Source: Saprospiraceae bacterium
Lineage (GTDB): Bacteria; Bacteroidota; Bacteroidia; Chitinophagales; Saprospiraceae
DNA length: 64,000 nucleotides
Assembly (NCBI GenBank): GCA_029251525.1
Contig: JAQXDE010000048.1
Location: forward strand, 42,515 to 106,514
Direction: 5' to 3'
This document shows positions 43,875-55,963 of the stretch, in pieces. The position numbers were made by a program, and so were the translations under genes. Numbering within the stretch: the stretch's first letter is position 1; each line of letters begins with the position of its first letter. The notes beneath the pieces were generated by a model that worked only from the letters and a program-made list of their open reading frames with translations, was not told the DNA's origin and searched no databases.

Positions 43875-45470
43875 ATGAAAAATATTTGGGTCGCATTCAT
43901 TTTTCTTTTTTCAGCTATTCAACTTTTAGGACAAGCTTCTTTAGAGGCTATTGATGATATTCCTTCTAGCCTTGCAGCAACAATTACTGCAGATAATTTA
44001 CGAGCTCACCTAACAGTTCTTGCTTCCGACGAATATGAAGGAAGAGAAACTGGAACAGAGGGGAATCGAAAAGCTGCGCAATATATTGCTAGTTACTTTA
44101 AGTTATTAGATTTGCCAAAAATTGGTGATGATGACTCTTATTATCAAAATGTAATGTTTACTTGGACTAAATGGGAAGAAGCAAGTATAGAAGTTAACGG
44201 AGAAAAATTCAGGCACCTATGGGATTTTTTATCTTTTCCTTCTCGAAATGGAAAAATACCAATGTTACAAATTGATGAAGTAGTATTTCTTGGGTATGGT
44301 ATCGACGATGCAAATTATAGTGATTATGGAAAAAAGAATATGAAGGGTAAAACTATTATGATTTATAAAGGAGAACCTATGGATAAAAAGGGAAATTCTC
44401 GAGTCACGGGAAATACAGCTCCATCTGAATGGACCACAAATTGGAAAATGAAATTAAAAAAGGCTCATGAAAAAGGAGTGAAGATGGTTTTATTTATCGA
44501 GAATAATTTACAAAAGGAAATTAGCGAGAACCGAAGGTTTTTAGTAGGTGCAAAAATGACACTAGGCGAGCAGACTGATCCTTTGACAATTTATGCAAAT
44601 AGTGCCTACATCTCCACTAATATTGCAAAAGCAATCATGGGCAATCAAGCTAGAAAGGTTATAAAGGCTAGAAATAAAATAAAGAAAAAAGGAAAATCAA
44701 GAAGTGTTAAAATTTCAACTGATATAAAAATTATTCAAACTAAAAATATTAAAACTTTAGTTGGAAATAATGTTTTGGGATTTATAGAAGGAAGCGACCC
44801 CAATTTGAAAGATGAAGTAGTAATAGTTACTGCACATTATGATCACTTAGGAAAAAGAGGAGAAGATGTATATAATGGAGCAGATGATAATGGGTCAGGA
44901 ACGAGTACAGTTTTGGAAGTAACAAGAGCATTGGTTGGAGCAAAGAAACAAGGGCAAGGTCCGAGGAGGAGTATATTGTGTATGTTGGTTACAGGGGAAG
45001 AAAAAGGACTATTGGGTTCTCAATTTTATGCTGAGCATCCAATTTTCCCAATTGCTAATACTGTTGCCAATGTGAATGTGGATATGGTAGGACGAGTAGA
45101 TAAAAAATATAAAGATACTCCAAATTACGTCTATGTAATTGGCTCAGATAGGTTGAGTACAGAACTTCATGACATAAATGAAAATGTTAATAAGAAGTAC
45201 ACCAATTTAGTGTTGGATTATACTTATAATGAGGATGATGATCCAAATAGGTATTACTATCGATCAGACCATTATAATTTTGCAGAGAAAGGAATTCCAG
45301 CAATCTTTTATTTTAATGGAACTCACGCAGATTATCACCGGACTTCAGATACGATTGAAAAAATTAATTTTGAAAAAATGGCAATTATTGGAAAATTAGT
45401 TTTTCATACTGCGTGGCAATTAGCAAATCAAGATAAGAGAATTGAGGTTGATGTAGAGGGACGAAATTAA
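43875..45470 (+). CDS. M28 family zinc aminopeptidase with a PA domain, secreted
   Basis: Signal peptide. M28 zinc-binding motifs (HYDHLG, DDNGSGT, GEE, HTxxD). Confidence 0.75.
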   Translation: MKNIWVAFIFLFSAIQLLGQASLEAIDDIPSSLAATITADNLRAHLTVLASDEYEGRETGTEGNRKAAQYIASYFKLLDLPKIGDDDSYYQNVMFTWTKWEEASIEVNGEKFRHLWDFLSFPSRNGKIPMLQIDEVVFLGYGIDDANYSDYGKKNMKGKTIMIYKGEPMDKKGNSRVTGNTAPSEWTTNWKMKLKKAHEKGVKMVLFIENNLQKEISENRRFLVGAKMTLGEQTDPLTIYANSAYISTNIAKAIMGNQARKVIKARNKIKKKGKSRSVKISTDIKIIQTKNIKTLVGNNVLGFIEGSDPNLKDEVVIVTAHYDHLGKRGEDVYNGADDNGSGTSTVLEVTRALVGAKKQGQGPRRSILCMLVTGEEKGLLGSQFYAEHPIFPIANTVANVNVDMVGRVDKKYKDTPNYVYVIGSDRLSTELHDINENVNKKYTNLVLDYTYNEDDDPNRYYYRSDHYNFAEKGIPAIFYFNGTHADYHRTSDTIEKINFEKMAIIGKLVFHTAWQLANQDKRIEVDVEGRN

Positions 45471-45506
45471 GAAATATTTGTGGAGACCATTTAAAGTAAA
45501 AATGAA

Positions 45507-45548
45507 AAGAGCGTTTCAAGTAAAACTTGGACGCTCTATTTCTTTGGA
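45507..45548 (+). terminator. Rho-independent terminator after the M28 peptidase
   Basis: AGAGCGTttCAAG-taaaa-CTTGgACGCTCT followed by ATTTCTTT. Confidence 0.55.
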
Positions 45549-45602
45549 TTATAAAATTCTATTGGTTACAGAGCCTAAGCTTTGCGAGTAGGCAAAAAAA
45601 AA

Positions 45603-45695
45603 GTGAGTTAAGAACCGACCTTACCCCCCAATAAGCTGGTTCCACTCACTTAATTTAAGGTCACTTCTGACCTCAAAGATCTTTGCTTAATTTTC
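45603..45695 (+). ncRNA. Candidate structured sRNA, copy A (two hairpins, C-rich loop)
   Basis: Hairpin 1: GTGAGT(TAA)GAACC...loop TTACCCCCCAATAA...GGTTCCACTCAC. Hairpin 2: GGTCA-CTTC-TGACC, then a conserved CTTT..GCTTAAT tail. Paralogous to 45813-45905, with compensatory substitutions between the copies. Confidence 0.35.
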
Positions 45696-45812
45696 CTGTG
45701 TTCAAATAGTGTTATTAAGTGTTCTTTCTAATACGGGGGTATCTGGGAGGAAATTTAGCAAAATCTTTATCTTTAAAATTCCCTCTTCTGGGAACTATTT
45801 TTTTATAAAAGG

Positions 45813-45905
45813 AGTGAGTAATGAGACCGATATTACCCCCCAATAAATCGGTCTCACTCACCCTTTATAAAGTCATTGCTGACTTTAATTCTTTAAGCTT
45901 AAATC
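45813..45905 (+). ncRNA. Candidate structured sRNA, copy B
   Basis: Hairpin 1: GTGAGT(AAT)GAGACCGAT...TTACCCCCCAATAA...ATCGGTCTCACTCAC (15 bp paired). Hairpin 2: AGTCA-TTGC-TGACT. Followed at 45902-45937 by a hairpin plus T8 terminator. Confidence 0.35.
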
Positions 45906-45937
45906 AGTAAAAACTGATTGTTTGCGTATTTTTTTTC
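45902..45937 (+). terminator. Rho-independent terminator following sRNA candidate copy B
   Basis: AATCAGT-AAAA-ACTGATT followed by GTTTGCGTATTTTTTTT. Confidence 0.5.
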
Positions 45938-46561
45938 ATAAACTTATGGGAGGAATTTGGAAACAGTTAAATTGAATTCACATAGCTAAGTGATAATATT
46001 TCGATTATTTAGTTTCCCAAAGACATATATTTATTTTCAACAACTGTGCCAATCAAGTTTTTTTAACGAATTATTTTTTAATTTAATTTGAAAAATATTA
46101 GCTAAAAAATTATCTCTCTTATTTCTATATACCTACCAATAAGTCTCTTTTCAAAAAGGGTCTACAATTCTTTAATCCATAATAGAATTTTAGAATTTAT
46201 CATCCTTGTAACTTTCTCCTCAACTTTTTAAAAGAGTAATTTATAAGTTACAATTTCTTCTTTTGCAATTTTGAAGCCAACACATACCAATTTAATTTTT
46301 CGAATATCAAAATTGTGACACGGGAAAAAATCACATAGTTGTTTTTTTAATAATTTAATGCGATTAAACTGCACTTTTGGCCTTTTTGTAAAAGGTTAAT
46401 GTTTGCAAGGGTAAAACTGTCTTGTTTCTACGTCATATTGGCAGTTTTAAGGTGATGGCACATCGTTTGGACTGGTGGTAATTGTATATTTTAAACATTG
46501 TTTTTTTCTCAAAATTTGTTTAAAATAATTAATAAATTTCAATCTAGGATCAAAATTTTTT

Positions 46562-46612
46562 AAAAATCTGGAGTTATAACTCCAAAATTCAGATTTTGAT
46601 TTTTTTTTTTTA
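46562..46612 (+). promoter_or_regulatory. Leader hairpin plus 13-T tract ending 14 nt before the htpG start codon (attenuator, thermosensor or upstream terminator)
   Basis: AAAATCTG-GAGTT-AT-AACTC-CAAAATT-CAGATTTT with an inner perfect 7-bp stem TGGAGTT/AACTCCA, then GATTTTTTTTTTTTT. Confidence 0.35.
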
Positions 46613-46626
46613 ATAAAAAACAAACC

Positions 46627-48492
46627 ATGCAAAAAGGTAATATTTCAGTAGAAACGGAAAATATATTTCCCATCATCAAACAATTCCTCTATTCTGATCA
46701 AGAAATATTTTTAAGGGAATTAGTTTCTAACGCAGTCGATGCAACTTCTAAATTAAAAACATTGGCGTCTAAGGGAGAAGTTAAAGGTGAAATTGGCGAT
46801 ATAACTATCGAAGTGTCAGTAGACAAAGAAAATAAGACGATTACGATAGCTGATAAAGGTATCGGGATGACGGAAGCTGAGGTGATGAAGTATTTGAATC
46901 AAGTAGCATTTTCGAGTGCAACAGAATTTCTGGAAAAGTACAAAAATGAAAGTTCAATTATTGGACATTTCGGATTAGGATTTTATTCTGCTTTTATGGT
47001 AGCAGATAAAGTGGAGGTAAAAACTCGTTCTTACAAAAAAAATAAAAAAGGAACGACTTGGACATGTATAGGCGATACTGAATATACAATTGATTCAAAT
47101 GATCGAAAAACTAGGGGAACAGATATCATTTTACACGTCAGCGATGATGCGACAGAGTTTTTAGATGAGGGACGAATTGAAGGTCTTTTGACAAAGTACT
47201 GTAAATTTTTACCAGTAGAGATTAAATTTGGAACCAAAACTGAGACCTCTTTTGAAGGAGAAGGGGATGATCAAACAGAAATTAAAACAGAAATTGATAA
47301 TATTATCAATAATCCAAATCCAATTTGGAAGAAAAAAGCAAATAAATTAAAAGAGGAGGATTATAAAAAATTCTATAATGAATTATATCCTTATTCGACT
47401 CCTCCTATGTTCTGGATTCATTTGGATATTGATTTTCCATTTAACTTAACTGGAATTTTATATTTTCCAAAATTGGGGAATTCAATTGAAGTTCAGAAAA
47501 ATAAAATTCAATTATACTCTAATCAAGTCTATGTAACCGATGAAGTAAAAGAAATTGTACCTGAGTTTTTGACTTTATTGCATGGGGTGATTGATTCACC
47601 AGACATTCCTTTGAATGTCTCTAGAAGTTATTTGCAAAGTGATGCAAATGTTAAAAAAATTACTGGCTATATCACTAAAAAAGTAGCTGATAAATTGGCA
47701 AGCCTTTTTAAGAAGAAAAGAGAAGACTTCGAATCAAAATGGAATGACTTAGGAGTATTCGTAAAATATGGAATGTTGTCTGAAGAAAAATTTCATGATA
47801 AAGCAAAGAAATTTGTTTTATTGAAAGATGTGGATGGTAATCTTTCTACAATTGAAGAATTCAAAGAGAAGATCAAAGACACGCAGACAGATAAGCATAA
47901 TAAATTAGTGATGGTTTACACTAATAATCCTGCAGGTTCGGATACCTATATAGAGGCTGCAAAAAATAAAGGATATTCTGTATTACAATTTGACAATGTC
48001 ATTGATAATCACTTTATGCAGCACATGGAATCAAAATTAGGAGATGTTACTTTCGTTCGAGTAGATTCTGATACTGCTGATAATTTGGTGCAAAAAGATG
48101 AAGTGACTGAATCTGTTTTAAACGAAAAAGAACAAGAGAAAGTAAAAACTTTATTTGAATCAAAAGTAAGCCAGGCAGGTGCAACAATTACAATGAAAGC
48201 ATTGTCACCGGATGATTTACCAGTTCAAATTACTAGGCCTGAATTCATGAGAAGAATGAAAGAGATGCAATCATTGCAAGGTGGTGGAATGGAAGGGTTC
48301 CCTGATAGTTATAATGTGGTAGTGAATTCAAATCATCCTTTAGTTGCAGAAAAGTTGTTGAAAATGCGAAGTGAAGAAAAGAAGGAAGACTTCGTAACAC
48401 ATTTATATGATTTAGCGAGGTTAAATCAAGGGATGTTACAAGGAGCTGAATTAAGTTCATTTGTCAATAAAAGCCTAGAGTTTTTGAAGTAA
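46627..48492 (+). CDS. htpG: Molecular chaperone HtpG (Hsp90)
   Basis: GHKL ATPase N-terminus (ELVSNAVDA, ADKGIGMT, GxxGxGFYSAF). 621 aa. Confidence 0.9.
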   Translation: MQKGNISVETENIFPIIKQFLYSDQEIFLRELVSNAVDATSKLKTLASKGEVKGEIGDITIEVSVDKENKTITIADKGIGMTEAEVMKYLNQVAFSSATEFLEKYKNESSIIGHFGLGFYSAFMVADKVEVKTRSYKKNKKGTTWTCIGDTEYTIDSNDRKTRGTDIILHVSDDATEFLDEGRIEGLLTKYCKFLPVEIKFGTKTETSFEGEGDDQTEIKTEIDNIINNPNPIWKKKANKLKEEDYKKFYNELYPYSTPPMFWIHLDIDFPFNLTGILYFPKLGNSIEVQKNKIQLYSNQVYVTDEVKEIVPEFLTLLHGVIDSPDIPLNVSRSYLQSDANVKKITGYITKKVADKLASLFKKKREDFESKWNDLGVFVKYGMLSEEKFHDKAKKFVLLKDVDGNLSTIEEFKEKIKDTQTDKHNKLVMVYTNNPAGSDTYIEAAKNKGYSVLQFDNVIDNHFMQHMESKLGDVTFVRVDSDTADNLVQKDEVTESVLNEKEQEKVKTLFESKVSQAGATITMKALSPDDLPVQITRPEFMRRMKEMQSLQGGGMEGFPDSYNVVVNSNHPLVAEKLLKMRSEEKKEDFVTHLYDLARLNQGMLQGAELSSFVNKSLEFLK

Positions 48493-53764: not shown

Positions 53765-55963
53765 ATGAAGAAAAAGAAAAAACTCAAAAAAATAAAAATG
53801 GGTCAAAAGCCCTCAGCTGCCGAACTAAAACATCAAATATTTAAATTCCTAAAAACCAATCCTAAAAAACGACTCACTGCAAAACAATTAATCAAAAAAT
53901 TAAATTTGGGGAACAGTCCTGATGCAGTCAACGATGCTATGTTGAAATTGTCGAAGGAGGGGAAATTATATGAGATTGAACCAGGTAGATTTCGCCTTGA
54001 CAGATTTGCAGATACCTCAAGTGGTAAAATAAAATCACGTAGGAAATTACATATTGGTAAAGCAGATGTTACTCGAAGTGGCGCTGCATATATTGTCGTA
54101 GACGACTTAGAAGACGATGTTTATGTTGCACAAAGACATACCAATGGAGTGATGCAAGGCGATCAAGTTCAAGTATCTGTGCACAAGCCCCGAGGTCGTA
54201 GGAAGCCAGAAGGTGAAATTGTGAAAATTTTAAATCGAGCGACAGAGCATTTCTTGGGGGTCATTCGGATTTATGAAGACTATGCATTGCTTACACCAAG
54301 CATGTATCAATATGAAGATCTGGAGATTCAAGTTGGGCTAAATGATTTGAGAGATGCGAAAGATGAAGATGTGGTCGTGGTTAAGGTAACTAAATGGGGT
54401 GAGAGTTTTAACTTCAGGTCTGTTGGAATTGTGACAAGTGTGCTCGGAGAGGAAGGGGGAAGTGAAATAGCAATGAAGTCAATTCTGATTAACAAAGGAT
54501 TTGAATTAGAATTTTCAGAGGCTGTGAAAAGGGAGTCAGAAGCATTGACGGATGAATTGTCAGAAGCGGATGTTGCTCGACGAAGAGATATGCGAGATAT
54601 CACAACTTTTACAATTGATCCAGACACTGCAAAGGATTTTGATGATGCATTATCATATCGGATTTTAGAAGATGGACGAAAAGAGATTGGCGTTCACATC
54701 GCTGATGTAACTCATTACGTTCGACCTGAAACTGCTTTGGATAAAGAAGCATTGAAGCGAAGTACCTCGGTTTATTTGGTGGATCGAGTGTTGCCAATGT
54801 TGCCTGAAAAAATTTCAAATGAATTGTGTTCACTTCGACCAAATGAAGATAAATGTACTTTTAGCGCAGTTTTTACTTTTAGTGCAAAAGGAAGAATTGA
54901 GGAGCGTTGGTTTGGAAAAACATTGATTCATTCTGACCGAAGATTTACCTATGAAGAAGCGCAAGAAGTTTTGGAAAAAGGGAAGGGCGAATATGCTGAG
55001 GAATTATTAGACTTAAATAATTTAGCTAAAAAACTTCAGAAGAAAAAATTCAAAAATGGCGCAATCAGTTTTGAATCTCCTGAGGTGAAATTTAAGTTGG
55101 ATGAAAATGGAGTACCGACTGATGTTTTCGTTAAGGTACGAAAAGATGCACATAAATTGATTGAAGAATTTATGTTGTTGGCAAACAAAGAGGTAGCCAC
55201 TTATATTGTCAAGAAAAGCAAAGCTGGAGGTGGCGAAATTCCTTTCGTTTATCGAGTTCACGATGAGCCAGATCCTGATAAAATTGCCGATTTTGCTAGG
55301 TTTGCGTTAGAATTAGGTTTCAAAATGGAAATGCAAACACCTCAACAAATTGCGGAAAGTTTCCTTGCACTTGACATAGCGGCGCAAGAAAATGAAGCGC
55401 TTCGAATGTTGCAACCTATTGCGATTCGTTCGATGGCAAAAGCAATCTATACTTCTGATAATATTGGGCATTATGGATTGGCATTTGAAAATTATTCACA
55501 TTTTACTTCTCCAATTCGAAGATATTCTGATGTGTTAGCACATAGGTTGTTAGAACAAAATCTAGGAGAAACATATCGAACAGATAAAGGTGAGTTAGAA
55601 GCAAAATGTCGACATATCTCTGGTCAAGAAAAAAAGGCAGCAGAGGCTGAAAGAGAGTCTGTAAAATATAAGCAAGTAGAATACACGAGTAAACATATTG
55701 GTGAAGTTTTCGATGCCCATATTTCTGGAATGATCGACCGTGGAATTTTTGTTCAAATTGATCACAGTAATGCAGAGGGGCTGATTGGTTTTGAAAATTT
55801 CTCAGAATCGTATGAGTTAGGAACTGGACGATTGAAAGCAATTGGTACACGAACTGGAAGTATTTTGAAGATGGGACAAAAGGTAAGAGCTAGGATTATT
55901 TCAACAGATTTAGAAAAAAAATTGATTGAATTAGAATTGGTCGAAGAAGGGGAGGAGGAATAA
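53765..55963 (+). CDS. rnr: Ribonuclease R
   Basis: Basic N-terminus, cold-shock/OB domains, RNB catalytic domain, and a C-terminal S1 domain (GEVFDAHISGMIDRGIFVQI). 732 aa. Confidence 0.85.
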   Translation: MKKKKKLKKIKMGQKPSAAELKHQIFKFLKTNPKKRLTAKQLIKKLNLGNSPDAVNDAMLKLSKEGKLYEIEPGRFRLDRFADTSSGKIKSRRKLHIGKADVTRSGAAYIVVDDLEDDVYVAQRHTNGVMQGDQVQVSVHKPRGRRKPEGEIVKILNRATEHFLGVIRIYEDYALLTPSMYQYEDLEIQVGLNDLRDAKDEDVVVVKVTKWGESFNFRSVGIVTSVLGEEGGSEIAMKSILINKGFELEFSEAVKRESEALTDELSEADVARRRDMRDITTFTIDPDTAKDFDDALSYRILEDGRKEIGVHIADVTHYVRPETALDKEALKRSTSVYLVDRVLPMLPEKISNELCSLRPNEDKCTFSAVFTFSAKGRIEERWFGKTLIHSDRRFTYEEAQEVLEKGKGEYAEELLDLNNLAKKLQKKKFKNGAISFESPEVKFKLDENGVPTDVFVKVRKDAHKLIEEFMLLANKEVATYIVKKSKAGGGEIPFVYRVHDEPDPDKIADFARFALELGFKMEMQTPQQIAESFLALDIAAQENEALRMLQPIAIRSMAKAIYTSDNIGHYGLAFENYSHFTSPIRRYSDVLAHRLLEQNLGETYRTDKGELEAKCRHISGQEKKAAEAERESVKYKQVEYTSKHIGEVFDAHISGMIDRGIFVQIDHSNAEGLIGFENFSESYELGTGRLKAIGTRTGSILKMGQKVRARIISTDLEKKLIELELVEEGEEE

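Follow-up and report, generated by a model that had tools for sequence, protein, structure and literature searches.

A modular structured RNA family encoded divergently from htpG in Saprospiraceae

Results

Identification of the RNA family

Comparative sequence analysis establishes that the gap upstream of htpG encodes a previously undescribed family of structured non-coding RNA, known from Saprospiraceae/Bacteroidota MAGs, and that in the window (the whole 64-kb stretch of DNA that was analyzed) the RNA strand is the minus strand. The locus is probably a modular sRNA gene that has a sigma-54-type promoter, belongs to the proteostasis regulon and would act in trans via C-rich boxes.

The gap is free of ORFs and is flanked by genes for an M28 peptidase and HtpG, as confirmed with Pfam. 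The original prediction had recognized in it two paralogous two-hairpin elements of ~93 nt, and both are present, at 45603-45695 (element A) and 45813-45905 (element B). They align with about 70-78% identity and share an identical 14-mer, TTACCCCCCAATAA (45621-45634 and 45833-45846). The compensatory differences between their arms are real (GAACC/GGTTC vs GAGACC/GGTCTC, and GGTCA/TGACC vs AGTCA/TGACT), and both elements carry a 3-nt bulge on one side only. The spacer string ACGGGGGTA at 45733-45741 and the hairpin followed by T8 at 45902-45936, which had also been pointed out, exist as sequence features. Each element folds with a z-score of -4 to -7, also when folded as the plus strand. In a covariance-model search of the 64-kb window with filters off, the two elements scored 95 and 90 bits and the next-best, unrelated match 17.6 bits, confirming that the pair is confined to two copies in the window.

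Homologs were sought by an exact-pattern scan of 185,579 species genomes (one genome per species), which returned 42 stretches, all from Saprospiraceae/Bacteroidota MAGs. The covariance model identified 98 modules in 45 related loci, plus the two in the window, and these additional copies keep the pairing, bearing out the proposal of a conserved structured RNA family with tandem paralogs. The arrays are tandem, with one to four modules per locus and a single locus per genome; the complete 6.19-Mb chromosome OZ244935.1, for example, has one. Contigs from the same species (L001-L008) are identical across the element and therefore provided no covariation information. In every locus whose contig extends to htpG, the array lies upstream of and divergent from this gene. 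The gene on the other side of the array differs between loci; in the window and in most loci it is a convergent M28 peptidase gene.

The element region contains no conserved ORF, relatives show indels that are not multiples of three, and no transposase was seen near the elements. A REP, MITE or other dispersed repeat was considered and rejected, as there are two adjacent copies, none further in the 64 kb, and one locus per genome beside htpG. CRISPR arrays consist of identical 25-40 nt repeats with unique spacers of similar length; here the units recur about every 200 nt with about 70% identity between copies, and the ‘spacer’ is conserved and structured as well; this candidate was also rejected.

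The window gave no match at gathering thresholds to the 4227 models of Rfam 15, which include LhrC, RsaE, Qrr, 6S-Flavo, Flavo-1 and the motifs whose names begin with Bacteroid. A permissive search of 45400-46700 returned chance-level matches only (E of at least 0.56, all far under gathering), and the arrays of eight further loci matched nothing in Rfam. Full-text literature searches on Saprospiraceae sRNAs and on sigma-54 sRNAs in Bacteroidetes turned up no account of this RNA.

Covariation and RNA strand

The consensus structure comprises 26 base pairs, 20 of which show compensatory changes. Of the alignment cells in these helices, 96.7% are paired, vs 40-48% when the partners are slid, and the observed covariation was reached by none of 500 shuffles. 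The strand was determined by counting G·U pairs in the consensus helices across 83 distinct copies: the minus strand has 244 and the plus strand 13, and the fraction of paired cells is 96.7% on the former and 78.4% on the latter. When read on the plus strand, the most common variants carry A·C and C·A mismatches in three helices described below (H1, H2 and P1). The covariance-model scores of the window copies are likewise strand-specific (95 and 90 bits on the minus strand, 23 and 19 bits on the plus strand). These observations identify the minus strand as the RNA strand, because it is there that the G·U wobble pairs fall, and the plus-strand orientation first proposed is overturned. The combination of compensatory changes and strand-specific G·U pairs also argues for a structured RNA, not a DNA palindrome.

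The strand of a hairpin RNA cannot be fixed from a single sequence; here it was set by the G·U asymmetry among homologs. The fold energy of the window locus is near-equal on both strands (-120.2 vs -117.7 kcal/mol), and the G·U count in minimum-free-energy folds of individual sequences was suggestive of the strand, the count on the consensus structure being decisive. When whole plus-strand units were aligned and folded with MAFFT/RNAalifold, the 5' arm was misaligned and almost no plus-strand structure was obtained. In many loci the terminator of the convergent peptidase gene lies within about 10 nt of the first plus-strand unit, leaving no room for a plus-strand promoter.

Module architecture

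The RNA would span about 46026 to 45594 on the minus strand, roughly 430 nt, and consist of two tandem homologous modules (Table 1). Each module has at its 3' end a short hairpin, H2, and then a very stable hairpin of ~22 bp, H1, and displays one or two C5-7 boxes in a 5' domain upstream of H2. In distal modules a covarying long-range helix, P1, closes the 5' domain. The 3' part of module 1 is element B (covariance-model match 45802-45895, minus strand, 95.1 bits) and that of module 2 is element A (45591-45683, minus strand, 90.5 bits); with the spacer included, the repeating unit is about 180-220 nt, and not the ~93 nt first assigned to it.

Table 1. Features of the array and of the adjacent htpG promoter region (coordinates of the window; sequences marked RNA are read on the RNA strand).
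Feature	Coordinates	Strand	Description
Sigma-54-type promoter motif of the array	46037..46051	-	TGGCACAGTTGTTGA; -24 TGGCAC, -12 TTG, facing the array
Sigma-54-type promoter motif of htpG	46456..46470	+	TGGCACATCGTTTGG; divergent, 404 nt from the array promoter
Module 1, promoter-proximal	45803..46026	-	~220 nt: 5' leader, C-box, internal hairpin, H2, H1
C-box of module 1, candidate seed	45947..45958	-	RNA AAAUUCCUCCCA; conserved in relatives
Internal hairpin of module 1	45902..45919	-	RNA AAUCAGUUUUUACUGAUU; stem of the plus-strand terminator originally supposed
H2 of module 1	45869..45886	-	RNA AAAGUCAGCAAUGACUUU; consensus helix 1
H1 of module 1	45812..45863	-	~22 bp, GGGG apex, 3-nt bulge in 3' arm, then UCCUUUUAU
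Small inter-module hairpin	45779..45794	-	RNA UUCCCAGAAGAGGGAA, then UUUU; close relatives of the window only
Module 2, promoter-distal	45594..45775	-	P1 5', C-box 2, C-box 1, variable hairpin, P1 3', H2, H1, U9
P1 5' half	45757..45768	-	RNA AAAGAUUUUGCU; pairs with 45675-45687
C-box 2 of module 2	45745..45753	-	RNA UUUCCUCCC; partly paired with AGGAAA at 45694-45699, extending P1
C-box 1 of module 2, candidate seed	45733..45742	-	RNA AUACCCCCGU; predicted exposed, complementary to H1 apex
P1 3' half	45675..45687	-	RNA AGCAAAGAUCUUU; from comparative pairing and folds
H2 of module 2	45654..45677	-	RNA UUUGAGGUCAGAAGUGACCUUAAA; from fold and consensus structure
H1 of module 2	45601..45651	-	Long hairpin, GGGG apex; plus-strand C6 at 45624-45629
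U9 tract	45594..45602	-	Directly 3' of H1 of module 2

The C-rich apical loop described for the plus strand is, on the RNA strand, the H1 apex UUAUUGGGGGGUAA, in which the stem is lengthened by UUAUU/GGUAA, including two U·G pairs, and a GGGG tetraloop is left. About 90% of aligned copies share exactly this apex, and GUGAG/CUCAC, the lower stem, is almost invariant, while the mid-stem covaries freely. In module 1 the apex corresponds to the plus-strand C6 at 45836-45841, and the covariation of H1 is found in consensus helices 2-4. Consensus helix 1 is H2; each of its six pairs shows compensatory changes, and pairing is kept in 98.2% of cells.

Promoter-proximal modules, compared in 32 loci, have one C-rich box each, often in a hairpin loop whose stem is lineage-dependent. 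Counterparts of the module 1 C-box in other lineages (CUCCCCCUU, CCCCCC and CCUCCC) lie in hairpin loops. The layout of module 2 is common to about 47 distal-type modules, and a C-rich box occupies the position of C-box 2 in all distal-type modules. In ~35 modules the best partner of the P1 3' half, with 9/9 pairs, is found at a fixed site directly 5' of C-box 2, and the covariation of P1 includes the combinations GATTTTTAC/GTAAAGATC, GGTTTTTGC/GCAAAAATC and GATCTTTGA/TCAAAGATC.

The hairpin and T8 at 45902-45936 had been interpreted as a plus-strand terminator, an assignment that did not survive comparison. The hairpin is kept with differing sequences in three other loci (L012, L015 and L018), the plus-strand T-run is missing in two of these (L015 and L018), and it is gone in relatives whose HtpG is 89% identical. 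In L015 an A·C mismatch on the plus strand is a U·G pair on the minus strand (alignment read by eye), i.e., it pairs as G·U on the minus strand only, and 45902-45919 is therefore best regarded as an internal hairpin of the minus-strand RNA. The small inter-module hairpin also covaries (TTCCC/GGGAA, TTCC/GGAA and TTCTCA/TGAGAA), and in L012 a plus-strand C·A is a minus-strand U·G. A terminator-like site on the plus strand (45779-45805) was also flagged at this hairpin.

Promoters and transcript unit

Sigma-54 promoters have the consensus TGGCAC at -24 and TTGC at -12, with GG and GC 12 nt apart. Only two matches to TGGCAYNNNNNTTGR occur in the 64-kb window, namely the array and htpG motifs of Table 1. 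The pattern TGGCAY-N5-TTGR is directed at the array in 34 of the related loci, at a distance of 150-370 nt from the module nearest the promoter. In 32 loci a copy is directed at htpG; its distance to the downstream htpG ATG is 22-168 nt in 30 loci. The -24 element, TGGCAY, and the spacing are as in sigma-54 promoters, and the -12 element reads TTGR where the canonical sequence is TTGC. The mapped SM4 promoters of Flavobacterium psychrophilum, assigned to sigma-54 by the authors of that study, have TTTGT at the place of the -12 element, and these sigma-54-type promoters drive groESL, dnaK, grpE-dnaJ, htpG, lon, clpB and an sRNA (PMC9723704). By analogy, a non-canonical -12 element may be normal for the phylum.

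Transcription of the array would start at about 46026 and run divergently from htpG, from a -24/-12 promoter of htpG-like form that, judged by its motif, would be sigma-54-dependent. Because the array and htpG promoters have the same form, induction of the RNA most likely accompanies that of the proteostasis (heat-shock-like) regulon. No internal sigma-54 motifs were seen between modules. As primary-sigma promoters of the individual modules, -7 boxes of the Bacteroidota form TAnnTTTG were looked for by eye on both strands and rejected, the sole candidates, GATCTTTG and GATTTTTG, being the two halves of P1. The palindrome TGTGAcacgggaaaaaaTCACA was rejected as a shared activator site, as it is conserved in close relatives alone.

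All close relatives retain the plus-strand A8-9 run, which on the RNA strand is the U9 after H1 of module 2, and the 3' end of module 2 has the form of an intrinsic terminator, with the stable hairpin H1 directly before U9. The 10 nt after H1 contain 7.2 U in last modules vs 4.8 in first modules, and the U-tract is weaker or absent after many promoter-proximal modules. H1 and the U-tract of the last module would thus serve as the intrinsic terminator of the array. The presence of one conserved promoter per array, together with the many first modules that have no U-tract, points to a multi-module primary transcript. Its modules would function together as a single multi-seed RNA, or as individual sRNAs released by termination or processing.

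Discussion

Most likely, the RNA would act as a trans-acting sRNA and use its exposed C-rich boxes to pair with rare G-rich sites in target mRNAs. Every module has C-boxes, most of them unpaired or in loops, and the stems of these loops often covary between lineages; in the window, which has a GC content of 34%, runs of at least five C or G are uncommon, numbering 23 in 64 kb. The idea of a C-rich seed, part of the original prediction, is retained in altered form: the apical loop has lost this role, and the G-rich boxes noted in the spacer are, on the RNA strand, the C-rich boxes. The phylum to which Saprospiraceae belong is largely without Shine-Dalgarno sequences, and G-rich targets would therefore not be ordinary ribosome-binding sites.

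The base-pairing mechanism and its targets are speculative. No conserved target emerged when duplexes were predicted between the C-box regions and the starts of 47 ORFs of the window. The strongest duplex lies at the 3' end of the RNase R gene, 35 nt upstream of coaX (-17.2 kcal/mol), and is single, unconserved and without statistical weight. G-rich sites are absent from the htpG 5' UTRs of 30 loci. That the H1 apex and GUGAG/CUCAC are nearly invariant is better explained by a protein or other conserved partner than by pure seed pairing.

This last observation is accommodated by a protein sponge or scaffold, a possible but rather unlikely mode of action in which the repeated H1 hairpins would bind a protein that two to four modules titrate or assemble under stress. 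Strand, promoter and structure would be the same as for the trans-acting sRNA, the mode of action alone being different. A protein ligand would fit a constant apex and lower stem separated by a freely covarying mid-stem, the tandem multiplication of modules (one to four copies) is typical of titrating RNAs, and the empty search for mRNA targets also speaks for it. However, the locus encodes no candidate protein, its neighbors other than htpG being variable, and the conserved exposed C-boxes would be left without a role. The RNA resembles CsrB/RsmZ in the repetition of a conserved hairpin apex along the molecule, but its loops are GGGG and not A(N)GGA, and there are one to four hairpins only. 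A CsrA-type sponge was rejected, as H1 has the apex UUGGGGGGUA and H2 the loop AGAAGU or GCAAU, with no repeat of GGA loops; to our knowledge, CsrA is not known in the phylum of Saprospiraceae.

It is improbable that the RNA is a self-gated stress sensor or regulator, in which a C-box would pair with the apex of its own module's terminator hairpin (C5-7 with G6) and the seed would be masked at normal temperature, until heat or proteotoxic stress. The flanks of the C-runs vary (UUA, AUU, AAC, CU and others) and do not match those of the apex, and complementarity between a C-run and a G-run alone is general. A specific tertiary or masking contact between C-box and H1 apex was rejected on these grounds and is kept at low probability. 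We know of no RpoH in the phylum of Saprospiraceae. Self-gating, if true, would add an RNA-level layer of thermosensing to a sigma-54-driven heat-shock regulon, and tandem modules would give it a graded, multi-seed output.

A cis-acting 5' leader on the minus strand, i.e., a riboswitch or attenuator of a downstream protein gene, is very improbable. Some lineages do have a co-directional gene 60-280 nt past the array: in L039, L058 and L060 its product is a conserved secreted protein of ~430 amino acids whose function is unknown, and in L053 it is a CHAT-domain protein. In the window and most loci, however, the next gene is the convergent M28 peptidase and there is nothing downstream to regulate; a strong terminator (U7-9) closes the last module, and it is htpG, on the opposite side, that is always conserved, and not the downstream gene.

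Two further readings can hardly be maintained. The first is that of plus-strand sRNAs of ~93 nt or ~330 nt with TTACCCCCCAATAA as seed and the hairpin and T8 at 45902-45936 as terminator: the hairpins do fold on the plus strand and hairpin and T-run sites are found there at 45779-45805 and 45902-45936, but the pairing, G·U and covariance-model comparisons all favor the minus strand, the T8 is not conserved, many loci lack promoter space after the upstream terminator, and the conserved promoter motif faces the opposite way. The second is a DNA-level element without an RNA role, either palindromic protein sites (e.g., for an activator of htpG) or a REP/MITE-like repeat; sigma-54-type promoters need upstream activator sites, and repeated palindromes in a regulatory intergenic region beside such a promoter would fit this reading. 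DNA palindromes are strand-symmetric, however, and here the substitutions show a strong asymmetry, with G·U on a single strand. The stems covary around a constant apex with one-sided bulges, the distance from the elements to the htpG promoter is 600-1000 nt with a second promoter in between, and there is one locus per genome with no transposase nearby.

Saprospiraceae are abundant, largely uncultured degraders of marine, freshwater and wastewater environments, and almost no regulatory RNAs are known from Bacteroidota other than Bacteroides and Flavobacterium. The new family is well supported: it has 98 copies, strong covariation, an assigned strand and a terminator, together with a promoter motif. 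Its physical link to htpG is probably accompanied by a transcriptional one, and the analysis suggests that the chaperone regulon includes an RNA arm. It also extends -24/-12 promoters on chaperone genes from one Flavobacterium to a second class of the phylum. The alignment and model are directly usable for annotating MAGs and for searching metatranscriptomes for the transcript.

Several known systems share individual properties with this RNA. Qrr1-5 of Vibrio and GlmY/GlmZ of enterobacteria are sigma-54-dependent sRNAs with -24/-12 promoters, Qrr comprising several paralogs. They have no sequence relationship to the present RNA, do not form tandem modules at a single locus and have no link to htpG, and the sigma-54 assignment of the RNA described here comes from its promoter motif. 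Rfp36 and Rfp1 of F. psychrophilum are sigma-54-type sRNAs, and Rfp36 demonstrates that sigma-54-type promoters drive sRNAs in Bacteroidota alongside chaperone genes (PMC9723704). Rfp36 is not beside htpG in F. psychrophilum, and has in common with the present RNA the 11-nt GGGGGUAAUAC alone, in another structural context.

NsiR1 of Nostoc, PrrF1/PrrF2 of Pseudomonas and OmrA/OmrB of E. coli are head-to-tail duplicated sRNAs, each copy with its own promoter. The present arrays are similar in having homologous units in one intergenic region with a copy number that varies among relatives, but a single conserved promoter was found per array. LhrC1-5 of Listeria monocytogenes and RsaE/RoxS of Firmicutes are multicopy, partly tandem sRNAs induced by envelope or stress regulons; their C-rich motifs, in loops or single strands, pair with G-rich mRNA sites, and they end in an intrinsic terminator. 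The Saprospiraceae RNA would resemble LhrC and RsaE as a multicopy tandem sRNA of stress type, its induction being predicted from the promoter, with C-rich motifs and an intrinsic terminator. No Rfam family matched the Saprospiraceae RNA, however, and it has no sequence or structure homology to LhrC, RsaE or RoxS; it differs from them in modules that are twice as long, in a near-invariant G-rich terminator apex and in a long-range closing helix.

Strand of the RNA

The two paralogous elements proposed in the gap between the M28 peptidase gene and htpG (a location confirmed by Pfam) are present, align at 70-78% identity and share an exact match to the 14-mer TTACCCCCCAATAA. Each folds into a long and a short hairpin, and does so on either strand with z-scores between -4 and -7. 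The differences between their stems (GAACC/GGTTC vs GAGACC/GGTCTC, and GGTCA/TGACC vs AGTCA/TGACT), the 3-nt bulge on one arm only and the occurrence of ACGGGGGTA in the spacer were all seen in the sequence as described. The gap had been called free of ORFs, and contains only short, unconserved ones. An Rfam scan of the window matched no family.

The original prediction placed the RNA on the plus strand. Read in that direction, the commonest variants put A·C and C·A oppositions within stems (e.g., CCAAC...ACTGG alongside CCAGT...ACTGG, or GATCTTTGC facing GCAAAAATC), which turn into G·U pairs when the minus strand is read. When 83 distinct cores were read as minus, RNAalifold gave 26 pairs and compensatory changes in 20 of these, as expected of the structured, covarying RNA family that had been proposed; 96.7% of cells were paired, compared with 40-48% for slid partners, and none of 500 shuffles matched any of the five observed measures. 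Over the same columns, with the three invariant apex pairs left out, 244 G·U pairs were counted on the minus strand and 13 on the plus strand, where 78.4% of cells were paired. A covariance model scored the window copies at 95 and 90 bits on the minus strand and at 23 and 19 bits on the plus strand. These comparisons show that the RNA is the window's minus strand. The fold energies of the window's own sequence do not separate the strands, which is why a reading of that sequence picked the wrong one.

Module architecture

On the minus strand, each module ends in a 6-10-bp hairpin (H2, usually GGUCAGAAGUGACC) followed by a ~22-bp hairpin (H1). The ~93-nt units first proposed were wrongly bounded, as modules also include a 5' domain upstream of H2 and have a median spacing of 201 nt. 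The base of H1 (GUGAG/CUCAC) is almost invariant, the middle of its stem covaries freely, and its apex, UUAUUGGGGGGUAA, is the same in ~90% of copies (75 of 83 aligned cores); the scan pattern demanded both apex and base, and scan-derived copies alone cannot prove the constancy of either. The extent of tolerated apex change is shown by variant copies adjoining scan-derived ones: two pattern-independent copies, at loci L020 and L024, have UUCAUCGGGGGGUAG. The apex lengthens the stem by UUAUU/GGUAA, two of these pairs being U·G, with GGGG remaining as the tetraloop, so that the C-rich apical loop suggested as a seed is not a feature of the RNA. The G-rich spacer boxes complementary to that loop do exist; on the true strand they are the C-rich boxes of the RNA. 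Termination is assigned to H1 of the last module and the U7-9 tract after it, a tract that many first modules lack. The hairpin and T8 reported past copy B are there, but their assignment as the terminator was wrong.

Distal modules, of which copy A is one, have a long-range helix (P1) upstream of H2, typically GAUUUUUGC...GCAAAGAUC. Its 5' half forms nine of nine pairs at a fixed position in ~35 modules and covaries (GAUUUUUAC/GUAAAGAUC, GGUUUUUGC/GCAAAAAUC, GAUCUUUGA/UCAAAGAUC). Within P1 lie two C5-7 boxes and a variable hairpin, along with a GGGAUA-like stretch whose pairing partner is part of the first box. The promoter-proximal module, of which copy B is one, is without P1 and has a ~125-nt leader with one C-rich box, often located in the loop of a hairpin, the stem of which varies among lineages (AAACC/GGUUU, CAUUUCU/AGAAAUG or UUGAAA/UUUCAA).

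Distribution and synteny

The window derives from an uncultured member of the Saprospiraceae (Bacteroidota). Homologues of its HtpG bear the names Saprospiraceae or Phaeodactylibacter, and the nearest species-representative contig is a Saprospiraceae MAG. The element is identical among contigs of the window's own species; syntenic contigs with HtpG 95% and 89% identical retain both copies, as well as the boxes ACGGGGGTA and GGGAGGAA in the spacer and, between the copies, a small hairpin that covaries. A pattern scan (GTGAG-N8-18-TTACCCCCCAATA-N6-16-CTCAC) of 185,579 species, one genome each, yielded 42 stretches, each holding 1-4 copies in tandem and every one from a Saprospiraceae/Bacteroidota MAG. 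The covariance-model search of relatives proposed earlier was run with a model trained on 83 distinct copies and recovered 98 modules across 45 loci; in the window it found exactly the two known modules, in agreement with the earlier statement that there were no others. As far as the exact-apex scan can tell, the RNA family is limited to Saprospiraceae.

The array lies upstream of htpG in every locus with sufficient contig, and its C-loop strand runs in the same direction as htpG. Complete arrays hold two (15 loci), three (6), four (2) or one (3) modules. The gene on the other side is not constant, being an M28 peptidase in most loci. In one sub-lineage it encodes a conserved secreted protein of ~430 aa, on the same strand and 130-280 nt downstream of the array, with a signal-peptide-like N-terminus, a low-complexity Lys/Glu-rich middle, 52-57% identity between loci and no Pfam match. 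Peptidase-side terminators at other loci have A-runs and T-runs on their flanks, a bidirectional form, and lie at most ~10 nt from the last RNA module. A deeper-branching lineage (HtpG ~70% identical) carries atypical, part-duplicated arrays with the apex variant, module spacings of 106-403 nt and an inserted terminator-like palindrome, GCCCGCTA...TAGCGGGC; its htpG promoter is just 22 nt from the ATG.

Coordinates of features in the window and at related loci
Feature	Position	Strand	Remark
M28 peptidase terminator hairpin	45508-45540	+	AGAGCGT...ACGCTCT and T-rich tail
U9 after last H1	45594-45602	-	
Copy A	45603-45695	-	
Copy B	45813-45905	-	
Array-facing motif	46051 to 46037	-	
Inter-promoter block	46258-46285		CTTTTGCAATTTTGAAGCCA
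Palindrome	46313-46334		TGTGACACGGGAAAAAATCACA
Inter-promoter block	46368-46390		CTGCACTTTTGGCCTTTTT
Inter-promoter block	46430-46445		CGTCAnATTGGCAG
htpG-facing motif	46456-46470	+	TGGCACATCGTTTGG; 146 nt upstream of htpG ATG at 46627
Leader hairpin	46567-46586		TCTGGAGTTATAACTCCAGA
G-rich site	55948-55962	+	GAAGGGGAGGAGGAA; last codons of RNase R gene, 35 nt upstream of coaX (55994)
Gene beside array, L053			CHAT-domain protein
Gene beside array, L039	3300-4565	+	~430 aa secreted protein, function unassigned
Gene beside array, L058	2065-3357	+	~430 aa secreted protein, function unassigned
Gene beside array, L060	6009-7316	-	~430 aa secreted protein, function unassigned
Atypical array, L024	4250-5130		
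Atypical array, L020	4810-5040		

Promoter motifs

A motif pointing at the array (TGGCAY-AGTTn-TTGR) was found at 34 loci, ~150-370 nt beyond the promoter-proximal module, and one pointing at htpG (TGGCAY-N4-TTTGR) at 32 loci, 22-168 nt upstream of the ATG. Each occurs once in the 64-kb window, and both have the form and spacing of -24/-12 promoters. Mapping of 5' ends in Flavobacterium psychrophilum placed a sigma-54-type motif, SM4, at groESL, dnaK, grpE-dnaJ, htpG, lon and clpB, and also assigned it to the sRNAs Rfp36 and Rfp1 (PMC9723704). The promoter sequences listed there have TTTGT at -12 (PMC9723704), so the missing C of the motifs here (TTGR for the canonical TTGC) may be no objection in this phylum. 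The htpG motif extends to Saprospiria the finding of such promoters at chaperone genes.

By analogy with the mapped promoters, transcription would start at ~46026, and the motifs predict an RNA of ~220 nt if it ends after the first module or ~430 nt if it reaches the U9 tract. Internal modules showed no promoter of their own, which makes a primary transcript spanning several modules the simpler interpretation.

The palindrome between the divergent promoters is confined to close relatives (9 of 29 loci, including the window) and may bind an activator or other transcription factor. Three more inter-promoter blocks are kept among relatives with HtpG 89-95% identical. The predicted htpG 5' UTR is long and AT-rich, and includes a hairpin that a scan marks as terminator-like on the minus strand and that is missing from relatives with HtpG 89% identical.

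Possible function

Sequence comparison establishes a non-coding RNA gene that is conserved, structured and defined as to strand. It is built of tandem modules, has a terminator, is tightly linked to htpG and is accompanied by two conserved -24/-12-type motifs that point in divergent directions. These features lead us to infer that the array would be co-induced with the proteostasis regulon.

How the RNA acts is the weakest part of this explanation. Exposed C-rich boxes, where C5 and G5 runs are rare, are the usual signature of seeds that pair with G-rich mRNA sites, and only 23 such runs occur in the 64 kb of this 34% GC genome. We therefore favour a multi-seed sRNA that would act in trans, its C-boxes base-pairing with G-rich mRNA sites. 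Against it, no convincing mRNA target of the C-boxes was found among the 47 window ORFs and the htpG 5' UTRs, and the near-invariant apex and base of H1 look more like a site recognised by a protein or other conserved partner, which makes a sponge or scaffold RNA a less probable but serious rival. A leader controlling the downstream gene is unlikely, as that gene is usually convergent, and a DNA-level element is excluded by the strand asymmetry.

The sole start-proximal G-rich site among the 47 window ORFs lies upstream of coaX; of the duplexes predicted for the C-box region, the one at this site was best (-17.2 kcal/mol), an isolated lead in one genome.

Comparison with known systems

No description of the array RNA was found in the literature. 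Rfp36, a sigma-54-dependent sRNA of F. psychrophilum, contains CCAAGGGGGUAAUAC (supplement of PMC9723704). An 11-mer, GGGGGUAAUAC, is common to Rfp36 and, in some modules (e.g., L039 2930-3021), the apex of H1 with its 3' flank; its structural context differs, and the overlap may be a coincidence.

In behaviour, the predicted RNA resembles LhrC and RsaE/RoxS, stress sRNAs that have C-rich seeds and occur as multiple tandem copies, and the sigma-54-driven Qrr, GlmY/Z and Flavobacterium Rfp36, the role of sigma-54 here being suggested by the motif. It is a member of none of these and is without an Rfam match. It is, on comparative grounds, a solid new RNA family in an interesting regulatory context, with a predicted function, and differs from those systems in its longer modules, in the apparent use of one promoter for several modules and in a terminator hairpin with a near-invariant G-rich apex.
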